From Tardiphaga sp. (GTDB lineage Bacteria > Pseudomonadota > Alphaproteobacteria > Rhizobiales > Xanthobacteraceae): DNA of 64,000 nt. Under the pieces are notes generated by a model. The model did not search any database and was not told where the DNA came from. It saw only the letters and a list, made by a program, of their open reading frames with translations. Location of the stretch: the NCBI GenBank assembly GCA_036561845.1, contig DATCUS010000223.1:7965-71964 (forward strand). Direction: 5' to 3'. The position numbers were made by a program, and so were the translations under genes. Of this stretch, positions 8,964-48,091 are shown one piece after another (the stretch's first letter is position 1; each line of letters starts with the position of its first letter).

Positions 8964-9054
8964 TATCGCGTCCCGCTGGCCTGCCTATCCTCGATGCTCA
9001 GAGCCATTCCCCTGCTGGAATGGAACCTGCGCGGAACCAGACGAGGAATCAGCG

Positions 9055-10797: not shown

Positions 10798-10832
10798 CCT
10801 TCGCAATCCCGCACTGACGATGGAGTCGACCG

Positions 10833-11066: not shown

Positions 11067-11069
11067 CGC

Positions 11070-12044
11070 ATGGCAGATCCGTTCGAATCCTATGACGACC
11101 TGGACGACGTCGACGACCGCCTGAATGCCGCCGATCCCGGCGAGCGCCGTGTCGCCATCATCGCGCTCGGCCATTCCGGCGATCCGGCGGCCGTGGAGCA
11201 TCTCGACCGCATGACCGCAGATCCGGACGCCGGCGTTCGCCAGCAGGTGGCGCTGGCGCTCGGCGAGTTCGACGGGCCCGAGGCCGCTGCCGCCTTGGTG
11301 AAGGTCGTGGTCGATCCGGAGCAGGCGGTGGCAAACGCCGCGGCCGATGCCATGGCCGAGCTGAAGGATCCGGCGAGCGCCGATGCGATCCTGCCGCTGG
11401 TCGGCCACGCCCACGCTTTCGTGCGCATGGCGGCGCTGCGCGCCTTGAAGGAGTTGCGGCGCAAGGACTCGCTGAAGCCGGCTCTCGACGCGCTGCAGGA
11501 CGTGGATGCATCCGTGCGCGTGCAGGCCATCGGGGTCATCGGTTTTCTCAAGCTGGAAGAGGCGATCCCGGCGCTGACCGCGGCGACGGCCGATGCCGAT
11601 GCCCATGTGCGTCGCGCCGCGGTCAGCGCGCTGGCGTTTTCCCACATGAAGTCCGCCGCGGAATCCATCACCCGTGCGCTGACGGACGCCGACTGGATGG
11701 TGCGGGAGATTGCCGCCGAGACCCTCGGCAGCAACGTCAACGGCGTGCAGGCCGCCGATGCGCTGATCAAGGCCACGACCGATGAATTCTGGCAGGTGCG
11801 GCTGAAGGCGGTACGCAGCCTTGGCAGGATGCGGATCGCGCGCGCCGTGCCGGCGATCGGCGCCTGTATCGCGCATCAGCAGGCCAATCTGCGCAAGGAG
11901 GGCGCGGCGGCGCTGGGCGAGATTGCGGACCCCGCCGGCCAACAGTTCCTTACGCCGATCATGGATGACCCGGATCCGGAAGTCCGCAAGAACGCCCGCT
12001 GGGCAATGCAGAAGATCCTGTCGAACAGCGCCGCCTCAGGTTGA
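11070..12044 (+). CDS. HEAT-repeat (PBS lyase-like) protein
   Basis: Repeated DxDxxVRxxAxxALG units along the whole length. Starts 3 bp after the ferredoxin stop. Confidence 0.9.
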   Translation: MADPFESYDDLDDVDDRLNAADPGERRVAIIALGHSGDPAAVEHLDRMTADPDAGVRQQVALALGEFDGPEAAAALVKVVVDPEQAVANAAADAMAELKDPASADAILPLVGHAHAFVRMAALRALKELRRKDSLKPALDALQDVDASVRVQAIGVIGFLKLEEAIPALTAATADADAHVRRAAVSALAFSHMKSAAESITRALTDADWMVREIAAETLGSNVNGVQAADALIKATTDEFWQVRLKAVRSLGRMRIARAVPAIGACIAHQQANLRKEGAAALGEIADPAGQQFLTPIMDDPDPEVRKNARWAMQKILSNSAASG

Positions 12045-12277
12045 GCCCCGGTGCCACATCCGGCAGCGGCGCGCGCAGCGGCCGCGGCCGGCCCGGGCGG
12101 CGAACGCAGCCGACGCCTGGGGAAATCCAGCGCGCCCCGGCGGCGACCGGACACAATCCCGCATTCTTACGGTTGGCGGCGTTAACGAGCGTGAATTGCC
12201 GCCGGTGCTAGCCTTTGGTCGGGCCGACGTCTTGCTGATCGACACGCGAGCAAAGCGCGGCAGAAAAGGCGGACAAC

Positions 12278-32806: not shown

Positions 32807-33532
32807 TCAGCGTCGCGTCTCGCGGCAGCCGGCGGCCTGGGCCTCTTCCACCGAGCAGAACCAGCGGGTGCCCTTGCTGATCTTCATGCTGATCTTGGCG
32901 TACCAGCGGCTCGACGGCGTGTGATAGATGCAGACGCCGGAGCGGTTGACGTTGCCCTTGATGGTGCAGGTCGGCGACGGCGCCACCGAGCCGGACGCCG
33001 AAGCCAGCAGGATGGCCAGCGCATTCTCGGGCGGCTTGATCGATCCGAGGATCGTGGTCTTCTTGTTGCGGACGCGCCAGTCCCACGGCGCGATGAAAGC
33101 GCCTTCCCACAGTCCGGTCTTGGCGTCCCGCGCGATTTTCTGGTCCGCATCGTAGTCGTGGGAGAACTGCACGAAGGACAGCGCCCAGCCGTTGGCCACC
33201 ATCCATTTCTGGATATCCTCACCGTCGACCTCGCATTTGGCCACCGAGCGGCCGAAACGGTCGGTGCGCGTCACATGGCAGGTCCAGCTCTTGTCACCGA
33301 CATGCTTCACCAGCGCGTCATGGGCCGCGACGCCGCAGGTCCAGCGTTCGCCGGTGGCATTGAGGCAGAGCTGGTCGTGCGACGGCGCGTCGATGCCGGC
33401 GAGGCGGATGCGGGTGCTGCCGATGGCGATCTGGTCGCCGTCGCGGATCTTCGGAACGCCGGTGACGTCCGCCGCCTGCGCCAGGGCAGGCAGGCCAAGC
33501 AGGCAAAGCGATATCAGAAATCGTTTAAACAT
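32807..33532 (-). CDS. Exported thermonuclease (SNase-like) family protein with ExoI-like C-terminus
   Basis: Signal peptide, DGD…IRLAGIDAP, DRFGRSVA and C-terminal IKGNV…YH…RWFCS. Confidence 0.88.
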   Translation of the reverse strand: MFKRFLISLCLLGLPALAQAADVTGVPKIRDGDQIAIGSTRIRLAGIDAPSHDQLCLNATGERWTCGVAAHDALVKHVGDKSWTCHVTRTDRFGRSVAKCEVDGEDIQKWMVANGWALSFVQFSHDYDADQKIARDAKTGLWEGAFIAPWDWRVRNKKTTILGSIKPPENALAILLASASGSVAPSPTCTIKGNVNRSGVCIYHTPSSRWYAKISMKISKGTRWFCSVEEAQAAGCRETRR

Positions 33533-33633: not shown

Positions 33634-35385
33634 TTAGCGCGATGACTGCCTGTTGGCGCGGTCCTGCAGCATCGACCGCCGCGCCAGCGCCAGCCCCATC
33701 AGCACGAAGGCCGAGGTCACCTCCGGCCCGCCCACCAGAATCCGGGTCGGCGTCTTCATCTTATTCCATTCATAGGCCCTGAATGGACCCTTTCGGCCGC
33801 CTTCGCCCAGATGCGCGACAATGCAATGCAGCGCCGGTGTGAAGCTGTTCGCCTCGGCGCCGAGGTGGCCGAGCGCGATCAGCGCCAGCGCGGCGTCGAA
33901 CACGTTCATCTCGGCTACGATCATCTGGTCCTGAACGTAGGCCAGCACGCGGGTGCGGATGAAGGCGAAGCTGCCGTCGGGATCGATCGCCTGCCGGGCG
34001 GCCAGCGGCAGCAGCAGGAACGCCGCATAGCAGCGGCCGAAATAGGCGCAGTACAGTTCCGGCAGGTAGTAGATGTGCGAGCGTGGATCGGCGAAGGCGC
34101 CGGACGCCACCAGCCGATGCTGGAAGCCGATGATCCTCTGCACGGTCTGCAGTCGCTGCGGCGTTTCCAGGATCTTCCAGCGCGCGCAGTTGCGGAAGCT
34201 GACCTCGAGAATGTCGAGGTTCAGCGTTGGATCCAGATCGTTGCCGAACGGCTGCTCGCCCTTGAGGTTGTCGATCCAGGTGACCACGCCGCCGTCGTAG
34301 TCGATATGATCGTTGAGCGGTACGGTGACCAGCGGTTCATTGGCGCCGTTGCCGATCTGATAGCCGGCGTAGAAATCCAGCAGCGGCTGGTCGAGCAGCG
34401 GGTCGGTCGAACCGGCCTGGGTCGCTGCGGAAAAAGAGCAGGCGGTGGTGTCGCAGTCGGGCACATAGACGTCGAAGCCGAGGCTGTGCTTGATCCCGGT
34501 GAAGAACTTGCTGAAGCGCGGATGCGGCGGCGGCGCCAGCGCGGTGATGACGCTGACCGTGCTGCCGTCATGGGACGGCACCTGCTCGCGGCTGGTGGTC
34601 AGACAGAACGCCACCATTTCGGAGATCGCATGGGTGGCAGCCTTCGCCTGATCGGTCGTGGCGAGGCCGGTCTCGCCAAAACTCAGCAGCGCCTCGGTGA
34701 AGAACGCATCGTAGTAGGCGGAGCGATGGCGGATCTGCACCGGCGCCCACATCGGCTCGGCGATTCCCTGCCACGGCGGATTGATCAGCCGGCTCGCCGG
34801 CGAGCGGGCGATGAAGATGCGCGCCAGGTTGAACAGCAGCGTCGAATTCTTGTAGCCGCGGGCATTGAGCCCGGTCAGCGCCATCAGGAATTCGCGGCCA
34901 TGTACGTCGGGATCGCCGATCAGGTTGAAGGCGGCATAGGTCGGAATGAAGCCGTTGCTGCCGAACGAGCGCAACAGATGCGCGCCGCAGGTGCGGATCA
35001 CATTGTCGATCGCGGCAAGATCGGGCGCTGCCGCCGATGCGCAGAGTTGCGGAGGCACGGGATGACGCAGCCTCACGCTGTCCAGCAACTCGGCCACTGG
35101 CCCACCGATCGCCGCCCAGTCCGGCGTCCTGTCATCGCGGGCGCTGATCAGCGCGTTCTGCACGGCGCGAAATCGGGCGGGATCGCGCAATTCCGGCAGT
35201 CCGGCCCGCCGCAGCAGCGGCCGCAGCACTGGATTGCCGAGGGCGGTCTTGTAGAATTTCACGATGTGGGGATCGCCGCCGTTGTGGTCGAGAAAGACGG
35301 GATCGCAGAGGTCGTAGAGCGAAGGGCCATCCTTCGACCCGGTGAGCGCCTGGCAAGCCGCACGGACGAAATGCTGGATACTCAT
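33634..35385 (-). CDS. Hypothetical protein with class II terpene cyclase-like DxDTT motif
   Basis: Start trimmed to MSIQHFV. Contains PDCDTTAC, DLDPTLNLDIL, IYYLPELYCAYFGR and VGGPEVTSAFVL. Confidence 0.75.
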   Translation of the reverse strand: MSIQHFVRAACQALTGSKDGPSLYDLCDPVFLDHNGGDPHIVKFYKTALGNPVLRPLLRRAGLPELRDPARFRAVQNALISARDDRTPDWAAIGGPVAELLDSVRLRHPVPPQLCASAAAPDLAAIDNVIRTCGAHLLRSFGSNGFIPTYAAFNLIGDPDVHGREFLMALTGLNARGYKNSTLLFNLARIFIARSPASRLINPPWQGIAEPMWAPVQIRHRSAYYDAFFTEALLSFGETGLATTDQAKAATHAISEMVAFCLTTSREQVPSHDGSTVSVITALAPPPHPRFSKFFTGIKHSLGFDVYVPDCDTTACSFSAATQAGSTDPLLDQPLLDFYAGYQIGNGANEPLVTVPLNDHIDYDGGVVTWIDNLKGEQPFGNDLDPTLNLDILEVSFRNCARWKILETPQRLQTVQRIIGFQHRLVASGAFADPRSHIYYLPELYCAYFGRCYAAFLLLPLAARQAIDPDGSFAFIRTRVLAYVQDQMIVAEMNVFDAALALIALGHLGAEANSFTPALHCIVAHLGEGGRKGPFRAYEWNKMKTPTRILVGGPEVTSAFVLMGLALARRSMLQDRANRQSSR

Positions 35386-35752
35386 CGGTCGGTTCCGTGC
35401 GGCTGAAGCATGCAAGCCATTGCAAAAATTACATAAATTGAACAAGAACACAAACGTCACGGAGTCATGGCGGCTGGCGCTCTGGGAGGGCGTGGTATTT
35501 TCATGCTGCCGTGGATTCGTCTGGCGCCGCAATTCGGAGACGGGCGAAGTGTCTGGATACCCGTGGCATGCCGGGACAGCTCGAGCAGAGCGGCCGGGTT
35601 GCCGAGAAAGGCGCGGCGGGTTAACAGTCTGTTTGCTGCGATGCCGCAAATTGAGCGCAATCGATGCCCATAAGTCCGGCACCCCCAAAAACCTAAATCG
35701 ACGTTGGCGCGACCAAGAGGCGCGACCCCAACGCTGACAGGGATGGCTTGTT

Positions 35753-36628
35753 ATGAATGTACGGCTGTTCGGCGTCACCCGCCGCTCCATCACCATCGCC
35801 GCCGCCATGGTCGGTCTGGTGTCGCTGGTGCTTGGTGCCAACGCCGCACTCAACAAACGGACCGTCGGTGCTGCGACCGCCACGGCATCGAGCACCATCA
35901 GCGACGTCGCCAGCAAAGCCTCGCGCCTCGCGCTGGTGATCGGCAACGGCCATTATCCCGACGCCAGCGCGCCGCTGACCCAGCCGATCAACGATGCCCG
36001 CGCGCTAACCACCGCCTTGCGCCACGACGGCTTCGACGTCGATGTGGTGGAAGACGCGACCCGAGACGATATGGCGCGCGCGGTGCAGCGCCTCAAGGCC
36101 AGGATCAAGCCGGACTCCACTGTGATGCTGTATTTCGGCGGCTACGGAGTCCAGGTCGGCCGCGAGAGCTACATGATCCCGGTCGATGCCGCGATCTGGA
36201 AAGAGGCCGACATCCGCCGCGACGGCGTCAGCGTCGAGGCCGTGCTCGACGTCATGAAGGAAAAGGGCGCCCACGCCAAGCTGGTGGTCATCGATGCATC
36301 GCGCCGCAATCCCTATGAGCGCCGCTTCCGCGGCTATTCGCGCGGCCTGGCGCCGATCAACGTCCCCGACAATGCGCTGATCCTGTCCTCGGCAACGCCC
36401 GGCAAGGTGGCCGACGACGCCAAGGGTGGCAACAGCCTGCTGGTCAGCGAACTGCTGAAGAACCTCAACTCCAAGGCATCCGGAGCCGAGGCAGTGTTCA
36501 CCAAGACCCGCGTCGCCGTCACCCGCGCCTCCGACGGCGAGCAGATTCCGGCGATGTCGTCGTCGCTGGTGGAAGACATTCCGTTCGGCACCGGCCTCGT
36601 CAGCACCGCCGACAAGGCCGGCAGCTAG
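35753..36628 (+). CDS. Caspase-family (peptidase C14) protein with inactive Tyr/Ser dyad
   Basis: RLALVIGNGHY and PINDARAL. YFGGYG replaces HG and DASR replaces DACR. N-terminal hydrophobic segment. Confidence 0.88.
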   Translation: MNVRLFGVTRRSITIAAAMVGLVSLVLGANAALNKRTVGAATATASSTISDVASKASRLALVIGNGHYPDASAPLTQPINDARALTTALRHDGFDVDVVEDATRDDMARAVQRLKARIKPDSTVMLYFGGYGVQVGRESYMIPVDAAIWKEADIRRDGVSVEAVLDVMKEKGAHAKLVVIDASRRNPYERRFRGYSRGLAPINVPDNALILSSATPGKVADDAKGGNSLLVSELLKNLNSKASGAEAVFTKTRVAVTRASDGEQIPAMSSSLVEDIPFGTGLVSTADKAGS

Positions 36629-36640
36629 GCTTTACCTCAA

Positions 36641-36667
36641 CCTCTCCCCCGCAAGTGCGGGGCGAGG
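36641..36667. repeat. Solo family A hairpin cap between convergent genes
   Basis: CCTCTCCCCCGCAAGTGCGGGGCGAGG. Confidence 0.75.
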
Positions 36668-36672
36668 TTAGC

Positions 36673-37572
36673 CTATTTCGGCTCCGCGCTGGCGGTGATC
36701 GGCCGCACCGGGTCGCCCTCGCGCAGCAGGGCGCCGGCGCGGGCCACCACGATATCGCCTTCGGCGAGACCCTCGCGGACCTCGACCCGACCGCCTGACA
36801 TCAGCCCAACCTCGACCCGCCTTGTCTCGACGCGCTGCCGCCGGATCACCTGGACCACGGTGCCGGCGCTGCCGTACAGGATCGCCGTCAGCGGCACCGA
36901 GACGCCACAGCTTTCGCCGGTCTTGATCAGCGCGCGGGCGTAGGAATTGGCCATCAGCCGCCGCGTCGAGGTGATGGTGACGAACACCTGGCCAAGCTGG
37001 CTGTTGGGCTCCACCGTGGACGCCACCCGGCGCACCTTGCCGTCGAGTTCGCCAACGCCGATGACCTTGATCTTCGCGCTCTGGTCCGCCTTCAGCCTGG
37101 CGAGATCGCGGGTCGGCACCTGGCCGGCCAGTTCGAATTCGCTGCGCGGGATGATGCTGAACAGCGCCTCGCCCTTGCCCGATGCGACGGTGCCGGCGAC
37201 CGCAGATGACGCGCTGACCAGACCGGCGACGGAGGCTTGCACAGCCACGGCGCCGCCGTCCGGCGCGGTCAGCCGCGCCAGGGTCTGGCCGGCGGTCACG
37301 GTCTCGCCGGCATCGACCAGCACCTCGGCCACCTTCAGCCCCGGCCGGTCCGGCCGGATCGCGATCTCCTCCTTGGGAATCAGGAAGCCCGCCACTTCCA
37401 CGATGGCTGCGAAGCAGGATTTCTCCGCCTTCAGCACGGTGACTGCCGCGCCCTTCGGCGCCTCCTCGTCGGCGGCAAGACCTGGCTGCGCAGCGGCGCA
37501 CAGGACAGCCGTAACGATCAGCGTCGCCAGCTTCGGAGACGAGCGAGGCGCGGGGAACGGGCTGATCGGCAT
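36673..37572 (-). CDS. RND periplasmic adaptor (MFP) lacking the alpha-helical hairpin
   Basis: Lipoyl halves (VDAGETVTAGQTLARL / VQASVAGLV) are joined by about 8 residues. Membrane-proximal RRVEVGL…EVREGLAEGD. Confidence 0.85.
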   Translation of the reverse strand: MPISPFPAPRSSPKLATLIVTAVLCAAAQPGLAADEEAPKGAAVTVLKAEKSCFAAIVEVAGFLIPKEEIAIRPDRPGLKVAEVLVDAGETVTAGQTLARLTAPDGGAVAVQASVAGLVSASSAVAGTVASGKGEALFSIIPRSEFELAGQVPTRDLARLKADQSAKIKVIGVGELDGKVRRVASTVEPNSQLGQVFVTITSTRRLMANSYARALIKTGESCGVSVPLTAILYGSAGTVVQVIRRQRVETRRVEVGLMSGGRVEVREGLAEGDIVVARAGALLREGDPVRPITASAEPK

Positions 37573-37730
37573 GGCAATTCCGTTGGTCAATACAATCAAT
37601 CAATGGCGCGGCATGGCCGCAGTCTGACTTTAGTGAAGCCAGACAGGCGAGCCAAGCGGCCAATCCCGCAAAGCATCACCATTTTGCAGAGTGCCTCGAC
37701 GCACGAGGGGCGGATGAACCCAAGAGGCGA

Positions 37731-37949
37731 GTGATGCGACCACCGACCATGGCCGGTTTGCTCGGAGACGTTCTGCTCGCAATAGTTCGCGTCGTGATAT
37801 GGCGCTGGCTCAGTGCGCTTGCGCTCAGCGCTCTCACCTGGCTCGATACGAAGATCCCTGGGTGCCGAATGAAGATGGTGGTCGGAGGCGCGTGCGGGCT
37901 CGCGGCCTTTTTTCTAGTTCCGATTTTTGCCGGGTTGTTGGGCTTTTGA
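37731..37949 (+). CDS. Small putative membrane protein
   Basis: Two hydrophobic stretches in 72 aa. Lower-GC region, so uncertain. Confidence 0.4.
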   Translation: MMRPPTMAGLLGDVLLAIVRVVIWRWLSALALSALTWLDTKIPGCRMKMVVGGACGLAAFFLVPIFAGLLGF

Positions 37950-38110
37950 AGACAATGAAATCCAGACCCATCATCGCATTGGCAATCGGCTGTAGCGACG
38001 TCGCGCCGCAGGCGACGCCGGGCGGCGTCCGCAGACATCGCTGAAATGGCTGGAAAGTGATGCGGCTTGTGACAGACTGGCCATATCAGGTCCGGCCCCT
38101 TATCTTGTGT

Positions 38111-38138
38111 GCCGTCAGCCGTCAGCCGTCAGCCGTCA
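38111..38138 (+). repeat. Tandem heptamer (GCCGTCA)x4
   Basis: Four exact copies ending about 70 bp upstream of the Crp/Fnr GTG. Confidence 0.9.
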
Positions 38139-38209
38139 TTGACGTTCAGGCAAAGAGTGGACACCGGTTGCGACTGCATCCGGGGATCGAGCATGCGGGA
38201 TATCTTGCA

Positions 38210-38884
38210 GTGAGCAGTCAGGCCGAATTCGCCGTCATCCTGAAGATGAACCCGATGTTCGCCGATCTCGGCGCCGAGGAACTGCAGCGCATTTCCGGGC
38301 TCTGCCACACCCAGCAGCTCAAGGCCGGCGAGATGCTGTTCCAGAAAGGCGACAGCGGCGATGCGCTGTACGGCGTACGTCGCGGCCGGATCCGCATCGA
38401 GACCGGCGCCTCGGACGGATCGCGGCTGACGCTGAACTTCCAGGGGCCCGGCGACATGTTCGGCGAGGTCGCCGTGCTCGATGGCCGCACCCGCACCGCC
38501 GACGCCACCGCCGCCGAGCCCACCGAACTGTTCGTGCTGCGACGGGAGGATTTTCTCGACCATCTGGAGCGCGAGCCGCGGGTGGCGCTGAAGCTGATCG
38601 AGTTGTTGTGTCAGCGCATCCGCTGGATGAGCGAGCGGATGGAGGAATCGGTGCTGCAGCCGCTGCCGGTGCGGCTGGCGCGGCGGCTGTGTGCGCTGGC
38701 CTCCGACTTCGGCTCGGAAGTGCACATCTCGCAGGAGCAGCTCGGCGTGTTCGTCGGCGCCGCGCGCGAGAGCGTGAACCGGCAATTGCAGGCCTGGCGC
38801 AAGGACGGGATTCTCGACCTGCAGCGCGGCCGGATTCTGTTGCTCAATCTGAACGGACTGACGAAGGTCGCGAGGAACGAGTAG
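38210..38884 (+). CDS. Crp/Fnr family regulator with cNMP-binding motif
   Basis: FGEVAVLDGRTRTADA and HTH SQEQLGVFVGAARESVNR. GTG start at 38210. Confidence 0.9.
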   Translation: MSSQAEFAVILKMNPMFADLGAEELQRISGLCHTQQLKAGEMLFQKGDSGDALYGVRRGRIRIETGASDGSRLTLNFQGPGDMFGEVAVLDGRTRTADATAAEPTELFVLRREDFLDHLEREPRVALKLIELLCQRIRWMSERMEESVLQPLPVRLARRLCALASDFGSEVHISQEQLGVFVGAARESVNRQLQAWRKDGILDLQRGRILLLNLNGLTKVARNE

Positions 38885-38899
38885 GGGCATTGTTTTCTT

Positions 38900-39073
38900 C
38901 CCTCTCCCCGCCCGGCGAAGCGCAGCTTCGCTAGGCGGGGAGAGGGTGGTTCGAAGGACCGCAGGTCGTTCGAGTCGGGTGAGGGGGAGTCAGAGTTTTA
39001 TTTGAGAGTCCCCCTCACCCGACCGGCTTCGCTACGCTTCGCCGGTCGACCTCTCCCCGCAAGCGGGGAGAGG
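38900..39073. repeat. Family A REP-like composite element (opposite orientation to the 30343 copy)
   Basis: GGTTCGAAGGACCGCAGGTCGTTCGAGTCGGGTGAGGGG is close to the reverse complement of the 30343 copy's inner arm. Hairpin caps at both ends. Confidence 0.85.
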
Positions 39074-39092
39074 TGAAGAAGCTGATCGTCTC

Positions 39093-42000
39093 TTACTTAT
39101 GCCCCACCGCCGGCGGCGTGATGTCGCCGTTCTCGCCGTCGCCGGTGGAGATCAGGAGCTTCTTGCCCCAGCGCCACGACAGCTGGCCGACGTCGTCCAT
39201 CATCATGAACATCGCCGGCACGAACAGCAGCGAGAGCGCCGTCGAGAAGATCAGACCGCCGATGATGGCCAGCGCCATCGGCGAGCGGAATTCGCCGCCG
39301 GCGCCGAATGCCAGTGCCGAAGGCATCATGCCGGCGGCCATGGCGATGGTGGTCATGACGATCGGCCGCGCCCGCTTCATGCCGGCGTCGATCATCGCCA
39401 CCTCGCGGCTCTTGCCGTTACGGATCGCCTCGATGGCGAACTCCACCAGCATGATGGCGTTCTTGGTGACGATGCCCATCAGCATCAGGATGCCGATCCA
39501 CACCGGGGTGGTCAGCTGCTTGCCGGTCAACAGCAGCGCCATGATGGCGCCGCCGATGGACAGCGGCAGCGAGAACAGGATGGTGATCGGCTGCAGGAAG
39601 GTGCCGAACAACAGCACCAGCACGGCATAGACCATCATCAGCCCGGCGGAGATCGCGGTGGCGAATCCGTCGGACAGTTCATTGAGGCTCTCGGCGTCGC
39701 CGGACTGCTTGACGCTGACATTCTTCGGCAGGCTCTTCATGACAGGCAGGTCGTAGATCTTCTTCATCGCGTCGCCGAGCGCGGCGGTGCCGACCAGGTC
39801 CGCGGCCACTGTGGCCTGACGCTCGCGGTCGTAGCGGTTGATGCTGGTCGGCCCCTGGTCGAGCTTGATGTCGGCCACCACAGACAGCGGCACGCCGCCG
39901 CGGCCGCCGCCGAGCGGCACGCGCAACTGCTCGAGCACCGCGAGGTCGGCGCGAGCCGAGTCCTCGAGCTGGACACGGATCGGCACCAGCCGGTCGCCGG
40001 CGTCGAACTTGGCCAGCGCCGGGCCGACGTCGCCGATGGTGGCGACGCGGATGGTTTCCGACAGGCCCTCGGTGGAGACGCCGAGCCGTGCGGCGAGATC
40101 GGCGCGCGGCTGGATCCGCAGTTCCGGCCGGTCCAGCGAGGTCTCCGAGATCACATTGGCGATCAGCGGAATCCGCTTCATCTGCGTCGCCAGCTCGTTG
40201 GCGACGTTGCCGACGATGTTGCTGTCGGTGCCAGTCACCACCAGCGAGATGGCGCGCAAGCCGTTCTCGTCGAGGAACCAGTAGCGGATGTCCGGGACGT
40301 TCTCGAGCTCCTTGCCGATGTCGAGCTCGAGCTGGCGCTGGGTGTGGGCGCTGTCGCGCGCGCTCTTCGGCGTGTAGTTGATGATCAGCGCCGCGCGCCG
40401 CACCTCCTGGAGGCCCGGCGGCACGCGGCCGCCGTCGACGAACACGCTCACGACCTCGGGCCGCTTGCGCAAGCGGGCGGTGATCTCCTCGGTGACCTTT
40501 TCGGTGAAGGCGAGCTGCGAGCCCGGCGGCAGCTCCATCGCCAGCAGCGAGCGCGCGGTGTCCTGCGCCGGCAGGAAGCCCTGCGGCAGCAGCTGGATGC
40601 TCCAGATCGACAGCGCGAAGATGCCGAGTCCTGCCAGCACGGTCATGTAATAGTGCTTGACCGACCATGTGACGAGCCTGGTGTAGGTCTGCAGCACGCG
40701 GCCGGGCGGCGGATCGTCGTGCGGATGATCCTTGAGGAAATAGGCGGCCAGCACCGGCGTGACGAACCGCGCCGCCAGCAGCGAGAAGAACACCTGCACC
40801 GACACGGTGATGCCGAACTGCTTGAAGAACTGTCCGGCGATGCCCGACATGAAGCTGGCGGGCGCGAAGATCGCGATGATGGTGAGCGAGATGGCGATCA
40901 CCGCAAGGCCGATCTCGTCGGCGGCCTCGAGGGCCGCGCGATAGGGCGACTTGCCCATGCGCATATGGCGCACGATGTTCTCGATCTCGACGATGGCGTC
41001 GTCGACCAGGATGCCGGTCGACAGCGTGATGGCGAGGAAGCTCACGAGGTTCAGCGAGAAGCCGAGCAGGTCCATCGCCCAGAACGCCGGGAAGATCGAC
41101 AGCGGCAGCGAGATCGCGGCGATCACCGTGGCGCGGAAGTCGCGCAGGAACACGAACACCACGATGACCGCCAGGATCGCGCCCTCGAACAGAGTGGAGA
41201 TCGCGGCCTCGTAGTTGCCCTTGGTGAAATCCACCGAGGTGTCGATCAGCTTGAGATCGACGTCGGGATAGGCGGCCTTCAGCGCCTCGATGCGCTTCTG
41301 CACGGCGGCGGCGACCACCACGTCGGAGGCGCCCTTGGAGCGCTTGATGCCCAGCGCCACCACCGGCTCGCCGTTGAAGCGCGCGAAGGTGCGACGGTCG
41401 GCGACGGTATCGGTGACGGTGCCGAGGTCGTCGAGCCGCACTTCGCCACCGGCGGGCAGGCTGATCATGGTGCCGGCGAGTTCGTTCAGCGTCTTGGCGC
41501 CGGCCAGCGTGCGGATCGCCTGGTCGTTCTTGCCGATTTCGGCGCGGCCGCCGGCGAGGTCGACATTGGTGCCGCGCAGCCGCCGCGAGACATCCACTGC
41601 AGTGAGGCCGGCCGCCTGCAGGCGATCGGTGTCCAGCGACACCAGGATTTCGCGCTCGACGCCGCCGATGCGTTCGACCTGTGCGACGTTACGCACGCCC
41701 TGCAGCGCGCGCTTGACGACGTCGTCGACGAACCACGACAGCTGTTCCGGCGTCTTGCCGGGCGAGATCGCCGCATAGGTGACGATCGGCAGGCCGATCA
41801 CGTCGACGCGCTGGATCAGCGGCTCGTTGACGTTCTGCGGCAGGTTGGCGCGGACGCGGGTGATGGCGTCCTTGACGTCGTTCAGCGCACGATCGGTGTT
41901 GGTCTCCAGCGCGAACTGGATCGTGGTCAGCGACAGGCCGTCGGTGATCGAGGACGAGATGTGCCTGACGCCCTCGACGCCGGAGACGCCGTCCTCGATG

Positions 42001-42203
42001 GTCTTGGTGACCTGGGCCTCGAGCTCCGCCGGTGCCGCGCCGAACTGCGACACCGCGACCGAGATCACCGGGATGTCGGCGTTGGGCAGCCGCGTCACCG
42101 CCAGCTTGGTGAAGCTGATCCAGCCGAGCGCCAGCAGGATGATCGAGAACACGATCGACGGCAGCGGATGGCGGATCGACCAGGCGGAGATATTCAGGGA
42201 CAT
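39093..42203 (-). CDS. RND efflux permease (AcrB/AcrD/AcrF family)
   Basis: 1036 aa with 12-TM pattern. Proton-relay residues GILVDDAIV, IVTKNAI and RARPIVMTT are intact. Confidence 0.95.
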   Translation of the reverse strand: MSLNISAWSIRHPLPSIVFSIILLALGWISFTKLAVTRLPNADIPVISVAVSQFGAAPAELEAQVTKTIEDGVSGVEGVRHISSSITDGLSLTTIQFALETNTDRALNDVKDAITRVRANLPQNVNEPLIQRVDVIGLPIVTYAAISPGKTPEQLSWFVDDVVKRALQGVRNVAQVERIGGVEREILVSLDTDRLQAAGLTAVDVSRRLRGTNVDLAGGRAEIGKNDQAIRTLAGAKTLNELAGTMISLPAGGEVRLDDLGTVTDTVADRRTFARFNGEPVVALGIKRSKGASDVVVAAAVQKRIEALKAAYPDVDLKLIDTSVDFTKGNYEAAISTLFEGAILAVIVVFVFLRDFRATVIAAISLPLSIFPAFWAMDLLGFSLNLVSFLAITLSTGILVDDAIVEIENIVRHMRMGKSPYRAALEAADEIGLAVIAISLTIIAIFAPASFMSGIAGQFFKQFGITVSVQVFFSLLAARFVTPVLAAYFLKDHPHDDPPPGRVLQTYTRLVTWSVKHYYMTVLAGLGIFALSIWSIQLLPQGFLPAQDTARSLLAMELPPGSQLAFTEKVTEEITARLRKRPEVVSVFVDGGRVPPGLQEVRRAALIINYTPKSARDSAHTQRQLELDIGKELENVPDIRYWFLDENGLRAISLVVTGTDSNIVGNVANELATQMKRIPLIANVISETSLDRPELRIQPRADLAARLGVSTEGLSETIRVATIGDVGPALAKFDAGDRLVPIRVQLEDSARADLAVLEQLRVPLGGGRGGVPLSVVADIKLDQGPTSINRYDRERQATVAADLVGTAALGDAMKKIYDLPVMKSLPKNVSVKQSGDAESLNELSDGFATAISAGLMMVYAVLVLLFGTFLQPITILFSLPLSIGGAIMALLLTGKQLTTPVWIGILMLMGIVTKNAIMLVEFAIEAIRNGKSREVAMIDAGMKRARPIVMTTIAMAAGMMPSALAFGAGGEFRSPMALAIIGGLIFSTALSLLFVPAMFMMMDDVGQLSWRWGKKLLISTGDGENGDITPPAVGHK

Positions 42204-43105
42204 TACCGTACTCTCGATCGATCCAGGTCTTCGGCGAACATGGTCTTGATCTGGTCGCCGTCATGCAGCGAGGAGCCGGCGTCGGCGACCACGACTTCGC
42301 CGGCCTCGACGCCTTCGAGGATCTCGGTGGAGGTGTCCGAGGCCAGCCCGACCTTGACCCTGCGGGTTTCCACGGTGCTGCCCTTGACCACCTGCACCGT
42401 CAGATGATCGACCGCTGAACGCGGCACCGCGACGCCGCAGCTGCGCTTGGCGTCGATATTGGCGCGGGCGAACATGCCGATTCTGAGCGCGGGATTGGGC
42501 GCCAGCGACAGCCGGACGTGGCCGAGCTGGGTGACGCGGTCGATCTGCGGCGACACCAGCCGCACCTTGCCGAACAGATCGGGCTGGTCGTCGCGGCTGA
42601 TCCGCGCGGTGGCGCCCGGATTGAGCTTGAGGATGTGGATGCTGGGCACTTCGGCGTCCAGCTCGATCTCGTTGTTGATGGCGATGCGGAACATCGGCCC
42701 GGCCTGCGGCGATGCCGGCGCACCGACGGCGGTGGCGACCTGGGTGACCAGGCCGGCAGCCGGCGTGCGCAGAATGATGGGCGCGCGGGAACCGCCCGGC
42801 AGCGGCGGCGGCGTCAGCCGCGCCAGTTCCTGGTTCTCGGTGACGAGGTCGCCCTCGCGGACCATCACGTCGGTGACTTTCGCGCCTTCGGTCTCGACCC
42901 CGATCAGCGCTTCGCGCCGCGGTACGATGAAGCCGGTGACTCGCACCATGTCGGAAAAGCAGGCATTGGTGGCCTTGGCGACGATAACCATGGCGCCGCC
43001 CGGCGCGGCGGGGCCATCAGCGCTGAGCGCGGTCAAGGGCGCGGTCATCACGGCAGCCGCAACCGCCCATGTCGCGAGATGTCTGTGACGGGCAAGGACC
43101 TTCAT
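42203..43105 (-). CDS. Second RND periplasmic adaptor (MFP) lacking the alpha-helical hairpin
   Basis: VREGDLVTENQELARL-TPPPLPGGSRAP-IILRTPAAGLV. Adjoins the RND start codon. Confidence 0.85.
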   Translation of the reverse strand: MKVLARHRHLATWAVAAAVMTAPLTALSADGPAAPGGAMVIVAKATNACFSDMVRVTGFIVPRREALIGVETEGAKVTDVMVREGDLVTENQELARLTPPPLPGGSRAPIILRTPAAGLVTQVATAVGAPASPQAGPMFRIAINNEIELDAEVPSIHILKLNPGATARISRDDQPDLFGKVRLVSPQIDRVTQLGHVRLSLAPNPALRIGMFARANIDAKRSCGVAVPRSAVDHLTVQVVKGSTVETRRVKVGLASDTSTEILEGVEAGEVVVADAGSSLHDGDQIKTMFAEDLDRSRVR

Positions 43106-43271
43106 TGCGGGAACATTCCACCGTCTGTTCGGCCGCAACAATGAAAGACGCGGCGGCAGGTTGGGGCAATCTACACAGGACGGCGTCAATCACAACCAAC
43201 AGCGCACCGTCGAGAGCGGGACGCTCTCATCGGGCGACGATCGCTCCGGATCGCGCGCGGATCAGCGGAGG

Positions 43272-43925
43272 CTACTTGGCCGCGGTGGTCTTGTCGGCCA
43301 TGTTGACCACCTGGACGCGGCGGTTGGCCGGATCCAGCGGATGGGCAGGATCCTTTGGCTTGCTTTTGCCATAGCCGACCGTCACCAGGTCGGTGCCGGC
43401 AATGCCGTATTTCTCCACCAAAGCGCGCTTGATCGCATCGGCGCGGCGTTCGGAGAGATCCTGGTTGTAGGCCTCGCTGCCGACCGCGTCGGTATGGCCG
43501 GCCACGATGAAGGTCGAGCCCTTCAATTCGTCACTGGACAGCGCCTTGCCAAGCGCCTGCACCGCGGGCTGCGCCCTGGCGCTGATATTGGCCGAATTGT
43601 AATCGAAGGTAATTTCCAGATCGATGTTCGGCCTGGTCTGGGCCAGCGCGGCGATCTGCTCACGCTCGCCGGACGACAGCGAGCGGGTGTTGCGGTTGCG
43701 CAGGGTGTCGACGAACTTGCCTTCGGTGGCATTGACCGCCGGCTCAACCGGCGGCGTCATCGACAGGCCGCGGGTAAGCGGCTTCTTCGGCGCCAGCGCG
43801 CGCAGGATCTGGTCCGACGTCACGTCGTCGGCGGCGACGGCAAGCCCGGCGGTCAGCGACAATGCGGCGCCGACCAGGGCGATGGCGGACAATGCTTTCA
43901 GTCTGCGGTTTGCGGATCTGTTCAT
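43272..43925 (-). CDS. OmpA-family peptidoglycan-binding protein (no beta-barrel)
   Basis: Signal peptide, ITFDYNSA, GHTDAVGSEAYNQDLSERRA and NRRVQV. Confidence 0.9.
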   Translation of the reverse strand: MNRSANRRLKALSAIALVGAALSLTAGLAVAADDVTSDQILRALAPKKPLTRGLSMTPPVEPAVNATEGKFVDTLRNRNTRSLSSGEREQIAALAQTRPNIDLEITFDYNSANISARAQPAVQALGKALSSDELKGSTFIVAGHTDAVGSEAYNQDLSERRADAIKRALVEKYGIAGTDLVTVGYGKSKPKDPAHPLDPANRRVQVVNMADKTTAAK

Positions 43926-44140
43926 GGCTGAACCCCTGCTGCGCCTCCGCGCGCTCGGTGAATTTCCCGCCGGGCCCGCGCAAGCTGCCAACGCGGCGCT
44001 GCGGAATGTGGTGCTGGACCTCGGCTTGCCTTCGGTAGTCAGCGGCACGCCGCAACGGGTTCAAATCAATCGCGTCAAATCACTATCGAAAGATCCTGCC
44101 GTACGCAGCGCTCGCGCACGCCGTGCTCCCGCACGCTGTG

Positions 44141-45646
44141 CTAGTGCACGCCATAACTGGCGAATTCCTTGACAATATTCGGATCCATCGCCTTGGCGTT
44201 GGTAATATCGAGTTCACCCTCGGCGGTGGCGCCGGTGCGCTGCTTGGCGAGGCCGCGGCCGAACAGCGACGAGGTCAGCCGCGGATTGATCTTCAGCGCG
44301 GCGTCGAAATCAGCGATGGCGTTCTTGGAGGCGCCGTTCTTCAGGTTGACCAGGCCGCGGCTGTCCAGCGCATCGACGAAATTCGGCCGTAGTCGCAGCG
44401 CCTCGTTGCAGTCCTTCAGCGCGGCCGCCAGTTCGCCGATCACGGTGCGCGCCCAGCAGCGGTTGTTGAAGGCTTCCACATCCTTGGGGTTGAGCCGGAT
44501 CGCCGCGTCGAAATCCTTGATCGCCAGCGTGTAGGCGCCCTTGCTGGCATAGACCTGGCCGCGCCGGTACAGCGCACCGGCATCCTCGGGATTCTCGGCG
44601 AGCTTGCCGTTGAGCGTCTTCATCGTCGGATCGTCGGCCAGCGCCAGCGCGATCTTGGCCTCGTCACGGACCGGCTCGGCCGGCGCTGCGGCTACGGGCG
44701 CAGCTGCGGACGGGGCCGGCGTCGCAACATCGACAGGCGCGACGGGTGCGACCGGCGCCGGTGCGACGGGAGTCGGTGGCGGCGATGTGACCGCTGCGGC
44801 GGGTGCAACGGACTCCTTGACCGGCGGCGGCACAATGTCGTCGCGCGATTTGGCGACCGCCACCGGGGTGGTGTTCTGCGCGGCCTGGCCGGGGATGAAG
44901 GAGAAATCCTCCGCCAGCGACGACGAGATCCAGGGCACCTGCTCGCTGCGCGAGGCGCGGGTGACGCCGACGCGGGTGCGGTTCAGGGTTTCCTCGGCCA
45001 TCAGGTCGGGAACGCGGATTTCCTTGAGCAACTCGCTGACGAACAGGCTGTGGTCGGTGCCGTTGTCGCTGACCACCGAACTGAGCGCAGCCGAATACAT
45101 CACCAGAGTTCCGCTCGGGGCGATCACCGGAGCGAGGCCGGCGGAAAAGCTACGGAACCGGCGCTCGAACGGATTGCGGCGAGATGCATCGAGCAGCGCA
45201 ACCTTGACGCCGGCACCGCGGCTGTTGATTTCACCCAGCACGGTCTCGAGGCTGAAGCCGTCGCGCCGCACGTCGGGTTCCGTCCAGATCTGGGCGTCCA
45301 CCGGGATCATGTAGCTCTGGCGGGCCGACTGCACGCCGTAGCCGCTGAAGAAGATCAGCGCGACCGATCCCGGCTTGATCTTACCATACATCTTGTCGAG
45401 CGCACGACGCATGGCCTCGCCGGTCAGGTTCTCGCCGATCTCCACATCGAAGCCGTCGCGCTTGAGTTCGTCGGCAAGTTCGCGGGCGTCGTTGATCGGT
45501 TCCTTGAGCGGCGCTTCGGCGTCGGGATATTTGGCGTTGCCGATCACCAGTGCGACACGTCCGGCGCGGTTGTCGGCGGCCACAGACTCGGTGGCCGGCG
45601 CGACAGACAAGGTGAGAAAGGCAAGTAACGCGAAGCGAATTTTCAT
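44141..45646 (-). CDS. Exported caspase-family protein (inactive Tyr/Ser dyad) with Pro/Ala linker and TPR repeats
   Basis: Signal peptide, RVALVIGNAKY, FFSGYG, LDASRRNPF, a PAPVAP linker and four TPR-like repeats. Confidence 0.9.
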   Translation of the reverse strand: MKIRFALLAFLTLSVAPATESVAADNRAGRVALVIGNAKYPDAEAPLKEPINDARELADELKRDGFDVEIGENLTGEAMRRALDKMYGKIKPGSVALIFFSGYGVQSARQSYMIPVDAQIWTEPDVRRDGFSLETVLGEINSRGAGVKVALLDASRRNPFERRFRSFSAGLAPVIAPSGTLVMYSAALSSVVSDNGTDHSLFVSELLKEIRVPDLMAEETLNRTRVGVTRASRSEQVPWISSSLAEDFSFIPGQAAQNTTPVAVAKSRDDIVPPPVKESVAPAAAVTSPPPTPVAPAPVAPVAPVDVATPAPSAAAPVAAAPAEPVRDEAKIALALADDPTMKTLNGKLAENPEDAGALYRRGQVYASKGAYTLAIKDFDAAIRLNPKDVEAFNNRCWARTVIGELAAALKDCNEALRLRPNFVDALDSRGLVNLKNGASKNAIADFDAALKINPRLTSSLFGRGLAKQRTGATAEGELDITNAKAMDPNIVKEFASYGVH

Positions 45647-45877
45647 CAGAAGCCGGTCCAAGCGAAAAGGCGCCGATCCCAGCTTGCGCCACGGCGACCT
45701 TACTCCAGGCTATTCGCATTATCAAACCGGTGCCGCCGGGGCGTCAATTGCCCGCAGACCTGCGACGAGTGCGACCAACGAACGCATCCTCACAACGCGA
45801 TGCCGAACATCAATACCTGACGACCACACTGTCGAGGCGGCGAGTTGTGCACGGCGAGCATGCGCAGACGCCGTCAT

Positions 45878-46354
45878 TTAGTACGCCTCGGTCTGCTGCA
45901 CCGCCTCGCGGCCCTGCACAAGGTCGAGGCTGCACTCGATCTTGCCGAGCAGCGCCGCAAAATCCTTGCGCTCCTGCGCCGTAAGGCACGACAGGATGTC
46001 GCGCTCCTTGCGCAACAGCCGCGGGATCAGTTCTTCGTACAGCGCGCGTCCGCGGATTGTGAGGCGCAGCCTGAATTCGCGGCGGTCGTCGGCATTGGCG
46101 ACCCGCTCGATCAATGCACGGTCCATCAAGGTGGTCACCGCGCGGCTGATGGTGGATTTGTGAGTACGCGTGCATTGCGCGATATATTGCGCGCTGCACG
46201 CCTCGTCGCGAAAGCCGAGCGTCGCCAGCACCCGCCATTCCGGAATGTCGAGCCCGTAGCGCGCGCGGTATTCCCCGGACAATGCCGCGCTGACCTCGGC
46301 GGCCAGCCGGTTAAGCCTGAAAGGCACGAACTTGAACAGGTCGAGTTTCGCCAC
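45878..46354 (-). CDS. MarR family transcriptional regulator
   Basis: EWRVLATL, THKSTISRAV and DRREFRLRLT. GTG start. Confidence 0.9.
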   Translation of the reverse strand: MAKLDLFKFVPFRLNRLAAEVSAALSGEYRARYGLDIPEWRVLATLGFRDEACSAQYIAQCTRTHKSTISRAVTTLMDRALIERVANADDRREFRLRLTIRGRALYEELIPRLLRKERDILSCLTAQERKDFAALLGKIECSLDLVQGREAVQQTEAY

Positions 46355-46399
46355 GTGGCCCCGCCAATTTCCATTGACGCCGGCATCGGCCCGGCGTTT

Positions 46400-46423
46400 A
46401 GATGGTTGCAAATGAGACTATCT
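46400..46423. promoter_or_regulatory. Putative MarR operator
   Basis: Imperfect 24-bp palindrome AGATGGTTGCAAATGAGACTATCT between the divergent marR and monooxygenase genes. Confidence 0.55.
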
Positions 46424-46486: not shown

Positions 46487-48091
46487 ATGGCGCAGCATGT
46501 CCGCGAATTTGCCTATCGCCGCCATCCCGATCAGGACCGCCGCGATGCCGCGCATCATCCGGTGGTCATCGTCGGCGCCGGTCCCGTCGGCCTGTCGCTG
46601 GCCATCGATCTGGCGCAACGCGGCCAGCGCGTGGTGCTGCTCGACGATGCCGACCGCATCGGCGACGGCTCGCGCGCCATCTGCTTTTCCAAGCGCTCGC
46701 TGGAAGTCTGGGACCGGCTCGGCGTCGCCGCGCCCATGGTCGCCAAGGGCGTGCAGTGGAATGTCGGCAAGATCTTCCGCGGCGAGGAGATCCTGTACCG
46801 CTTCGACCTGTTGCCGGAGCCGGGCCACAAGATGCCGGCCTTCATCAACCTGCAGCAATATTATGCCGAGAGCTTTCTGGTCGACCGGGTCCAGCAATTG
46901 CCTGAGATCGACCTGCGCTGGCGCAACAAGGTCAGCGGGCTCAGGCAGCACAACGATCACGCCGAACTCGCGGTGGAGACGCCGGATGGGCCCTATACGC
47001 TGCGCGCTGACTACGTGGTGGCTTGCGACGGCGCGCGCTCCGGGATGCGCGGGCTGGTCGGCGCGGAATTCACCGGCGAGACCTTCGAAGACCAGTTCCT
47101 GATCGCCGATGTGAAGATGACCGCGGCATTCCCCACCGAACGCTGGTTCTGGTTCGACCCGCCGTTCCATTCGGGCCAGTCTGCGCTGCTGCATCGCCAG
47201 CCCGACGACGTCTGGCGCATCGACCTGCAGCTTGGCCCGGACGCCGATCCCGCCGTCGAGCGGCTGCCGGAGAACGTCCGGCCGCGCATCGCGCGCATGC
47301 TCGGCCATGACGATTTCAGCTTCGAATGGATCTCGATCTACAAGTTCCAGTGTCGCCGCATGCAGCGTTTCGTGCATGAGCGGGTGATCTTCGCCGGCGA
47401 TGCCGCGCATCAGGTGTCGCCATTCGGCGCCCGCGGCGCCAATTCGGGGTTGGAGGATGGCGAGAATCTGGCGTGGAAACTGGCGATGATCCTTCGTGGC
47501 GAGGCGCCGGCGGGGTTGCTCGCCAGTTACGAGACCGAGCGCGGTCTTGCCGCCGACGACAACATCCGCGCCTCTACCCGCTCCACCGATTTCATCGCCC
47601 CGCATTCAAAGCAGGAGCAGCGGTTGCGCCAGGCGGTGCTGGCGCTGGCCGGGGAGGCCGATTTCGCCAGGCGCATGGTCAACGGTGGAAGGCTGTCGGT
47701 GCCGTCGGTCTATGACACGGTGCTGTCGACCGATGATGCCGAGGAATGGCGCGCGGGGCCGCAGCCGGGTGCGCATATGCCGGATGCACCGTTAGCGACC
47801 GATGACGGTGCGCATGTGTTTCTCTCGGAATGTTTCGCCCGGGCCGGTCGTGGCTTCACTGTACTGCAGTCGGATAGTGTTGCGATCGAACTGCCCGAGG
47901 GCGTGGCGCGCCTCGTGGTCGGAAACGATGCGCAACTGCGCGATCAGGCCGGACTGTTCGGGACGCGATACGGGATTGACCCTGGCGCAGCGTATCTGCT
48001 GCGCCCCGACGGCTATGTCGCCGCGCGTTTCCATCGTCCAACGCCGGGCGCAATCGCTGCCGCCGTGGCGCGCGCCAGCGGGAGAATGTGA
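46487..48091 (+). CDS. FAD-dependent aromatic monooxygenase (MhpA-like)
   Basis: GAGPVG, VVACDGARS and GDAAHQVSPFGARGANSG. Confidence 0.9.
   Translation: MAQHVREFAYRRHPDQDRRDAAHHPVVIVGAGPVGLSLAIDLAQRGQRVVLLDDADRIGDGSRAICFSKRSLEVWDRLGVAAPMVAKGVQWNVGKIFRGEEILYRFDLLPEPGHKMPAFINLQQYYAESFLVDRVQQLPEIDLRWRNKVSGLRQHNDHAELAVETPDGPYTLRADYVVACDGARSGMRGLVGAEFTGETFEDQFLIADVKMTAAFPTERWFWFDPPFHSGQSALLHRQPDDVWRIDLQLGPDADPAVERLPENVRPRIARMLGHDDFSFEWISIYKFQCRRMQRFVHERVIFAGDAAHQVSPFGARGANSGLEDGENLAWKLAMILRGEAPAGLLASYETERGLAADDNIRASTRSTDFIAPHSKQEQRLRQAVLALAGEADFARRMVNGGRLSVPSVYDTVLSTDDAEEWRAGPQPGAHMPDAPLATDDGAHVFLSECFARAGRGFTVLQSDSVAIELPEGVARLVVGNDAQLRDQAGLFGTRYGIDPGAAYLLRPDGYVAARFHRPTPGAIAAAVARASGRM

Follow-up and report, generated by a model that had tools for sequence, protein, structure and literature searches.

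A Tardiphaga gene cluster combining an RND permease and two hairpin-less adaptors with two dead orthocaspases

Pseudo-orthocaspases of the YS, YA and FS classes have been catalogued and represent almost a fifth of the alphaproteobacterial orthocaspases, 561 of the 582 alphaproteobacterial cases being found in Rhizobiales (Klemencic et al. 2019, PMC6426788). A link to photosynthesis was proposed for these proteins; the same study assigned them no molecular role and contained no analysis of gene neighbourhoods, and later papers on pseudo-orthocaspases deal with cyanobacteria and do not mention a pump context. Adaptors of resistance-nodulation-division (RND) pumps that have no α-hairpin are also known, BesA of the Borrelia BesABC system having been described in 2013 (PMC3807786; PDB 4KKS/4KKT/4KKU). 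Here we analyse a locus of Tardiphaga sp. in which both kinds of protein are encoded side by side. It lies in a 64,000-nucleotide stretch of DNA, called the window below, which corresponds to positions 7965-71964 of contig C223 in a genome of 6.3 Mb and 368 contigs. Eight intact genes occupy 33.6-45.7 kb of the window according to their open reading frames (ORFs) and to Pfam and NCBIfam searches.

The genes are arranged in the order DCDTT, casp2, MFP2, Crp, RND, MFP1, OmpA-like and caspTPR, where DCDTT stands for a protein named after its motif, casp2 and caspTPR for two caspase-fold proteins, and MFP1 and MFP2 for two RND adaptors. A preliminary description, made from the sequence of this stretch, had placed the genes of the TPR caspase, the OmpA-like protein, the adaptor and the permease in the same direction and the DCDTT gene divergent from the first caspase; both statements agree with the gene coordinates. 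MFP1 and RND overlap by one base, while the Crp gene meets RND tail to tail and points away from MFP2. All eight genes are intact open frames, and over 24 genomes of the genus they show 63-92% identity. We lean towards regarding the locus as the reduced, Tardiphaga-type form of a lineage-specific envelope cluster of the Bradyrhizobium/Nitrobacter/Rhodopseudomonas clade, in which the caspases would work as non-catalytic subunits together with a cyclic nucleotide (cNMP)-regulated pump.

Dead caspases beside hairpin-less adaptors

Both caspases belong to the Peptidase_C14 family (casp2, 35753-36628, + strand, E 5e-39; caspTPR, 44141-45646, − strand, E 2e-36). The C14 match ends around residue 274 in casp2 and 253 in caspTPR; beyond these points the Pfam scan shows TPR repeats or nothing, casp2 being devoid of a C-terminal domain and caspTPR carrying TPR repeats and a Pro/Ala-rich linker. 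When casp2 is aligned with the MALT1 paracaspase (phmmer), G-H-G is replaced by G-Y-G and D-M-C-R by D-A-S-R, and a MAFFT alignment of the five C14 paralogues of the genome reveals the same two dyad replacements in caspTPR. The earlier view that the locus encodes two exported caspase-fold proteins with identical inactivating substitutions is thus borne out. Since two of the five paralogues retain the His/Cys dyad, its loss is specific; the fifth has Tyr/Ala. This third dead caspase is encoded at the end of a contig (C40:21266-22126), and the two active-looking His/Cys paralogues lie on contigs C365 and C235.

Among 11 sequences representing both dead paralogues the dyad positions are occupied by Y or F and by S or A, and a block R-R-N-P-x-E-R-R-F-R (RRNP[F/Y]ERRFR) and a G-L-A motif are invariant. 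The caspase domain of caspTPR is 86% identical to that of its B. sediminis orthologue, compared with 90% for the permease, 87% for Crp, 78% for MFP1 and 69% for the OmpA-like protein. By these alignments the dead caspases are strongly constrained, in the pattern of a conserved binding surface and not of decay. For caspTPR, which heads the pump arm, every one of the 24 genomes of the genus has an orthologue. The C-terminal domain of the operon caspase is composed of TPR repeats in most genomes of the family, and of an FGE-sulfatase/SUMF1-type domain in three distant genera, represented by genomes G187 (L026, 12538-14370), G067 (L025, 1726-3363) and G160 (L027, 3563-5323). Outside the family the best caspase matches were paralogues with 31-37% identity. 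The N-terminus of casp2 (35753-35860) reads T-R-R-S ahead of a hydrophobic stretch, and on reading aligned DNA the corresponding nucleotides are conserved in three other genera, which suggests Tat export or a signal anchor for casp2; caspTPR would have a plain Sec-type signal.

The two adaptors, MFP2 (36673-37599, − strand) and MFP1 (42203-43105, − strand, its stop codon overlapping the RND start), both match HlyD_3 and HlyD_D23. In the adaptor family TIGR01730 (cut-off 94.9) MFP2 scores 102.9 and MFP1 94.3. They are 39% identical to each other, and no RND gene of its own follows MFP2. An alignment with the paralogous adaptors encoded on contigs C238 and C191 shows that both are devoid of the 65-70 or so residues that make up the coiled-coil site of the latter. 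In accordance, the AlphaFold model of MFP1 is all-β, with a mean pLDDT of 80.6 (about 90 over residues 40-290), and its longest helix has at most four residues. The presence of two short hairpin-less adaptors, proposed initially, is upheld by these data. When the model was compared with PDB folds the eight best matches were all BesA chains, aligned over some 260 columns with E values between 4e-16 and 9e-14, and MFP1 is accordingly modelled as a BesA-like hairpin-less adaptor, with predicted lipoyl, β-barrel and membrane-proximal domains and no coiled coil. Among 251 genomes of the order, no full-length hairpin-less adaptor was found outside the family; the matches in these genomes begin at about residue 112 in frames of 390-500 amino acids or more, and are therefore ordinary hairpin-bearing adaptors. 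MFP1 and MFP2 also share two conserved cysteines (..NAC(F).. and ..SCGV..) that are missing from the hairpin-bearing C238 and C191 adaptors. A periplasmic disulfide peculiar to this adaptor type is possible.

The distribution of these genes was followed in 151 genomes from 62 genera of the family, a phylogenetically structured sample with one genome per species that served for all three queries; adjacencies were tabulated by hand from the search coordinates. The dead-caspase domain (E ≤1e-45) is present in 42 genomes from 19 genera, usually in two copies each. The MFP1 query (E ≤1e-30) detected the same 42 genomes and two more that have one MFP2-like gene only (20 genera), and the DCDTT query detected 36 genomes from 15 genera, 35 of which are among the 42 caspase-positive ones. 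For caspase and adaptor the Fisher p value is 2e-35 by genome and 5e-15 by genus, figures that overstate independence because the positive genera may form a single clade. Three genera are mixed, and there the genes vary together: G041 and G059 have neither caspases nor adaptors, and G047 has a single MFP2-like gene only. The synteny survey that the preliminary description had suggested, and on which its proposal depended, thus finds the genes co-inherited far beyond chance.

Co-inheritance extends to gene order. In 33 of 41 genomes a dead-caspase gene lies 1.6-2.9 kb upstream of MFP1 on the same strand, the exceptions being mostly due to contig breaks. In G074 (L023: caspTPR 1952-3565, MFP1 frame from 3584, RND 4591-7722) and G042 (L024: caspTPR 10601-12121 on the − strand, MFP1 frame ending at 10593, RND 6353-9514) caspase and MFP1 are immediate neighbours, and MFP1 in turn adjoins RND or overlaps with it. 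The second pair, casp2 and MFP2, lie side by side in convergent orientation in about 18 genomes, and in G042, G103, G150 and G179 this pair is located megabases or contigs away from the pump. Furthermore, the DCDTT gene is present in 35 genomes besides this one, and in about 29 of these it adjoins casp2 in divergent orientation; in genera g25 and g56 the two remain together though separated from MFP2. A dead caspase is found beside a short adaptor twice per genome, and the arrangement survives rearrangement.

These observations bear on a rival explanation, namely that the locus encodes an ordinary tripartite pump for xenobiotics or metals, working like BesABC through an unlinked TolC-type channel, and that the caspases, the OmpA-like protein, Crp and the DCDTT protein are unrelated neighbours kept by ancestry. 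The near-perfect phyletic match and the adjacency of caspase and MFP1 over 19 genera, sometimes with no gene between them, are difficult to reconcile with such an explanation, as is the second caspase-adaptor pair, whose genes stay together where they have left the pump. The orphan second adaptor would also be left to explain.

The permease and its missing channel

The permease (39093-42203, − strand) is HAE1-like and covers the whole length of PF00873 (ACR_tran, 754 bits, profile positions 2-1020 of 1021). Among solved structures MdtB comes closest (374 bits). In the alignment with MdtB the Asp-Asp pair of transmembrane helix 4, the Lys of helix 10 and the Arg of helix 11 are all kept, the relay segments being LVDDAIVEIENI, GIVTKNAIML and KRARPIVMTT, so that the proton relay is indeed intact, as noted before. 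A typical HAE1-like permease with an intact relay and MdtB as its nearest solved structure speaks for an ordinary pump, and so does the label 'AcrA-like' that public annotations give to the adaptor. On the other hand, the permease stays far below the NCBIfam multidrug cut-offs (678.5 versus 1250 for NF033617 and 451.7 versus 940 for TIGR00915); judged by these scores, it appears to be a divergent branch and not a named pump. Two named exporters were considered and rejected. MFP1 and MFP2 score 52.2 and 42.3 with NF045680 (IhpB), for which the cut-off is 450, which does not fit the divalent-metal exporter IhpABC of Bradyrhizobium, and ExsFGH is a standard tripartite pump.

A TolC-type gene is missing from the neighbourhood, as first remarked: the 14 OEP-domain matches of the genome fall on seven other contigs and none on the 78.7-kb contig C223. 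They include about seven outer-membrane factor loci, which an ordinary pump could use. The nearest RND paralogues of the genome are 44% (C238) and 41% (C191) identical to the permease, and the one on C191 is adjoined by an OEP gene. The proposal that this is not a standard drug pump is therefore only partly sustained. The adaptors are hairpin-less, unlike those of the nearest paralogues; however, neither the missing hairpin nor the unlinked TolC indicates independence from TolC, because BesA works with the TolC-like BesC and the genome does have outer-membrane factor loci. Taking both sides together, we consider the ordinary pump with unrelated neighbours possible but doubtful.

Accessory genes and regulation

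The gene for the OmpA-like protein (43272-43928, − strand) encodes an exported protein with a Pfam OmpA domain (PF00691, 75.8 bits versus a cut-off of 27.2), in agreement with the peptidoglycan-binding domain reported initially. On reading the sequence we noted HTDAVGSEAYNQDLSERRA, which we take to be the conserved Asp/Arg motif for peptidoglycan contact of the OmpA_C domain. In many genera the gene is located between caspTPR and MFP1, and in G074 and G167 it stands immediately ahead of the caspase; G042, G067 and G160 gave no match (E ≤1e-35), and an orthologue is also present in some system-negative genomes. It is thus a frequent and movable accessory, not a core component. The idea that the dead proteases are anchored through OmpA does not hold as a core design, since G074 and G042 have no OmpA gene between caspase and MFP1 and some positive genomes have no orthologue.

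Two further genes belong to the cluster in relatives. One encodes an AsmA-family protein (PF05170, E 1e-32 to 1e-35) and is divergent from Crp. The other encodes a nucleotide cyclase and is, in most relatives, directly upstream of and co-directional with MFP2; it is either a dCache-HAMP-GAF-cyclase or is split into a dCache-HAMP-GAF histidine kinase and a REC-cyclase. Of the 43 genomes that have the system, 28 carry AsmA (from 13 of 19 genera) and 31 carry the cyclase (from 17 of 19), and the best match to either lies inside the cluster wherever coordinates can be compared. The full order is seen in G092, where caspTPR, OmpA, MFP1, RND, Crp, AsmA, cyclase, MFP2, casp2 (convergent) and DCDTT (divergent) extend over about 16.5 kb, the place of Crp being deduced from other genomes. 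None of the five genomes sampled from the window's genus has either of these additional genes, and tblastn of the genome itself revealed only paralogues with 28-31% identity. The window thus appears to hold the full arrangement with AsmA and the cyclase deleted, a loss that would be genus-wide.

Could the locus be a decaying remnant that has no joint function in this genus? The absence of AsmA and the cyclase from the five genomes, common as they are in relatives, may be viewed as a sign of decay. All eight remaining genes are intact, however, and with the degree of identity given above for the 24 genomes of the genus they have also kept their functional motifs. We regard decay as very improbable.

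The cyclase also raises the question of whether the cluster might rather be a periplasmic signalling device, with the dead caspases as receptors of ligands or peptides that report the state of the envelope to the dCache cyclase, the cNMP being read by Crp and the pump being one of the outputs. A sensor cyclase of either form inside the cluster in 17 of 19 genera and a Crp gene of the cNMP type would suit such a device, and pseudo-enzymes commonly serve as binding modules. Yet the window's genus and the Rhodopseudomonas-like genus g19 have no cyclase and keep both caspases, both adaptors, RND and Crp. Since the caspases are retained after loss of the cyclase they must have a cyclase-independent role; moreover, the caspase genes pair with adaptor genes and not with the cyclase gene. 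A device of this sort is thus improbable. A fusion of cyclase and MFP2, which would have been a Rosetta-stone link, was also considered and dismissed: the 1063-amino-acid frame in G020 that prompted it is an unrelated GH113/RTX protein. In this genome of the same genus the protein, composed of a GH113 domain and RTX repeats, is inserted between Crp and casp2 (L015, 11608-14799).

The DCDTT protein (33634-35385, − strand, 583 amino acids) is cytoplasmic. It has no Pfam or NCBIfam match, nor any Pfam match even at E ≤1 when three distant relatives of 34-35% identity are included, and no PDB profile match. The gene is single-copy and the family is small (342 representatives, mostly fragments). 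Within the motif VPDCDTTAC the residues D310, C311, D312, T313 and T314 are invariant in 24 homologues. The general-acid motif of class II terpene cyclases is DxDD or DxDTT, the latter form being in keeping with the names of mutants in the PDB titles of the reference enzymes, and the DCDTT sequence would correspond to it. An AlphaFold model built on the 24 homologues (pLDDT 73, pTM 0.77) has drimenyl-diphosphate synthase, drimenol synthase, oxidosqualene cyclase and squalene-hopene cyclase as its best PDB folds, with a probability of 1.00 and E values of 2e-5 to 5e-4, yet with TM-scores of 0.34-0.54 (0.40-0.46 for the drimenol synthases). It seems somewhat more probable to us that the protein is a class II cyclase-like enzyme than that it is not. 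Its connection to the pump is founded on a single observation, its conserved adjacency to casp2.

A lipid or terpenoid cargo is speculative. The idea gains two hints, from the AsmA gene in the cluster of most relatives and from the predicted class II cyclase-like fold of the DCDTT protein. In its boldest form the cluster would be a TolC-independent envelope machine, in which the permease and its stubby adaptors hand an endogenous lipid, which could be a terpenoid cyclised by the DCDTT protein, to periplasmic acceptors. The dead caspases would receive or cap it in place of the hairpin-TolC junction, and the connection onward to the wall and the outer membrane would be made by OmpA-like proteins and, in the full form, by AsmA-like ones. 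We consider this unlikely. If true, it would provide the first molecular function for alphaproteobacterial pseudo-orthocaspases. More generally, the cluster could point to an unrecognised route of lipids or terpenoids to the outer membrane.

The regulator (about 38210-38884, + strand, the start being that indicated by the B. sediminis orthologue) belongs to the Crp/Fnr family and has a cNMP_binding domain (PF00027, E 1e-23) and an HTH_Crp_2 domain (PF13545, E 3e-15). Its N-terminus, as read from the sequence, contains a single Cys and no FNR Cys cluster, so that it is of the cNMP type as first described. It is 87% identical over 224 amino acids to the B. sediminis gene at the same position, a position also found in G074, G042 and G160. 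A perfect tandem repeat of four copies of the heptamer GCCGTCA is present at 38111-38138 of the window, some 70-100 nt ahead of where Crp is likely to start, and could be a slippage-prone element in the Crp leader or promoter. The convergent gap between Crp and RND is filled by GC-rich palindromes of the CCTCTCCCCGC...GCGGGGAGAGG type (38900-38946 and 38974-39023), and a similar one is found between casp2 and MFP2 (about 36640-36668). They look like repetitive extragenic palindromic (REP)-type elements or bidirectional terminators.

A 17-nt element, TGCTGCGATGCCGCAAA, is found about 100 nt upstream of casp2 (35634-35650, + strand). An alignment of the intergenic regions of five genomes, which represent four genera, shows it to be conserved; it occurs once per locus and only upstream of casp2, and it is possibly an operator or promoter element. 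No regulon motif was established across the cluster, in which this conserved element is confined to the region upstream of casp2. A shared Crp box was rejected, since the candidate TGCAA-N4-TTGCA at 35411 is conserved solely in the closest relative and its occurrence in the window is at chance level. A Sigma-70-like sequence, TTGACG-18-GATAAT, is located about 70 nt upstream of caspTPR (45718-45747, − strand). It is the sole promoter-like match between 33000 and 46500, where 1.5 would be expected by chance, and is therefore weak; scans of the cluster for promoters and terminators as evidence of operons gave counts at chance level.

On one side of the cluster an ORF of 241 amino acids (32807-33532, − strand), encoding an exported staphylococcal-nuclease-like protein, lies a short way downstream of the DCDTT gene, a position that a PNPOx-like gene takes in G074; the ORF is probably outside the cluster. 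On the other side, upstream of caspTPR, an ORF of 177 amino acids (45878-46411, − strand) is followed by a divergent one of 534 amino acids (46487-48091, + strand). In B. sediminis a MarR gene, an FAD-dependent ring hydroxylase gene and genes of the homogentisate pathway are found upstream of caspTPR, and by position alone we take the two ORFs to be counterparts of the MarR and hydroxylase genes and outside the cluster.

A working model and its relation to described systems

The preferred reading, in which dead caspases work with a cNMP-regulated pump, can be put as follows. The core would consist of the HAE1-like permease, two BesA-like adaptors, two dead orthocaspases each gene-paired with one adaptor, Crp and the DCDTT protein. 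The full form in relatives would add AsmA and the dCache sensor cyclase, transcribed with MFP2, and the OmpA-like protein would be a frequent add-on. The RND trimer and the short adaptors, possibly arranged in a mixed MFP1/MFP2 ring as in TriABC, would export a substrate of hydrophobic or amphiphilic nature, taken from the inner membrane or the periplasm. The pump might end in the periplasm, connect to a TolC homologue encoded elsewhere in the manner of BesABC, or supply a lipid bridge of the AsmA type. The dead caspases might bind adaptors or cargo, using both the TPR or FGE-type domain and the conserved surface of their fold that carries the RRNP[F/Y]ERRFR loop, thereby supplying contacts that the hairpins give in ordinary pumps; the TPR, FGE-type and OmpA-like modules could add further ones. 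Expression would be set by cNMP through Crp, the signal coming in the full form from the periplasm-sensing cyclase.

Several points weigh against this model. All of the evidence is comparative, and the co-occurrence could largely reflect vertical inheritance of one ancestral block, given that the positive genera may belong to a single clade. Some lineages can dispense with one of the caspases, G126 keeping MFP1-RND without caspTPR and G056 having no casp2. The genes casp2 and MFP2 are convergent and so not co-transcribed, and gaps of about 210 bp between caspTPR and OmpA and about 165 bp between OmpA and MFP1 make co-transcription in the window uncertain; gaps of this size permit separate transcription, as an ordinary pump with unrelated neighbours would have it. 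Finally, BesA, the structural twin of MFP1, serves a TolC-dependent pump despite having no hairpin. Should the cluster prove to encode a TolC-dependent exporter of the ordinary kind, the finding would be modest, a lineage-specific pump with odd neighbours. The cluster is common to relatives of Bradyrhizobium, Tardiphaga, Nitrobacter and Rhodopseudomonas, and it is relevant to the way in which an RND pump of an ordinary diderm cell is made complete when the adaptor hairpins and a linked channel are missing.

With regard to the caspases, both proteins of the window resemble the classes described in the orthocaspase survey (PMC6426788): they are C14 proteins, apparently with a p20 domain only, in which Tyr (Phe) replaces His and Ser (Ala) replaces Cys, and one of them has TPR repeats. 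In that survey the FS dyad goes with TPR repeats and the YS dyad with plain C-termini, whereas the TPR protein of the window is YS and its B. sediminis orthologue FS. The pairing of caspase and adaptor genes offers a first genomic clue to the role of these catalogued pseudo-enzymes. It also makes this role experimentally approachable, in tractable bacteria from soil or symbiosis of which Bradyrhizobium and Rhodopseudomonas are examples.

The closest relative of the adaptor is BesA, with which MFP1 shares the three-domain all-β architecture without α-hairpin, an end-to-end sequence alignment and its top fold E value of 4e-16. The identity is 22%, however, and BesA is encoded together with the TolC-like BesC, whereas the window has no linked outer-membrane factor and has two paralogous adaptors, each paired with a dead caspase. 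The use of two adaptors with one permease is reminiscent of TriABC-OpmH of Pseudomonas aeruginosa (PDB 6VEJ), and a fused TriAB chain is the best PDB sequence match of MFP1; for the window this sharing of the permease is presumed. The TriA and TriB genes differ in being adjacent, their products have hairpins and use OpmH, while MFP2 lies 4.6 kb away beyond the regulator gene.

A precedent for non-transporter envelope proteins that bind pumps is provided by the YbjP lipoprotein on AcrABZ-TolC and MacAB-TolC (PDB 9TG4, 9V53, 9QGY), and some of the structures that MFP1 matches by fold are these YbjP pump entries. In its fold YbjP bears no relation to caspases or OmpA, and the partnership proposed for the window is one suggested by the genes. 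The best structural matches of the DCDTT protein include SsDMS (PDB 7XQ4, 8ZG0) and AsDMS (9M7D), with a motif of the D-x-D-T-T type; it has no sequence similarity to these class II terpene cyclases by hidden Markov models (Pfam, PDB), and the likeness stands at TM-scores of 0.34-0.54 for a model of pLDDT 73. The parts of the cluster are thus already known, while in the literature searched we found no published description of caspase, RND permease and hairpin-less adaptor in combination. The novelty lies in the set of accessory partners, hitherto undescribed for an RND-adaptor system.

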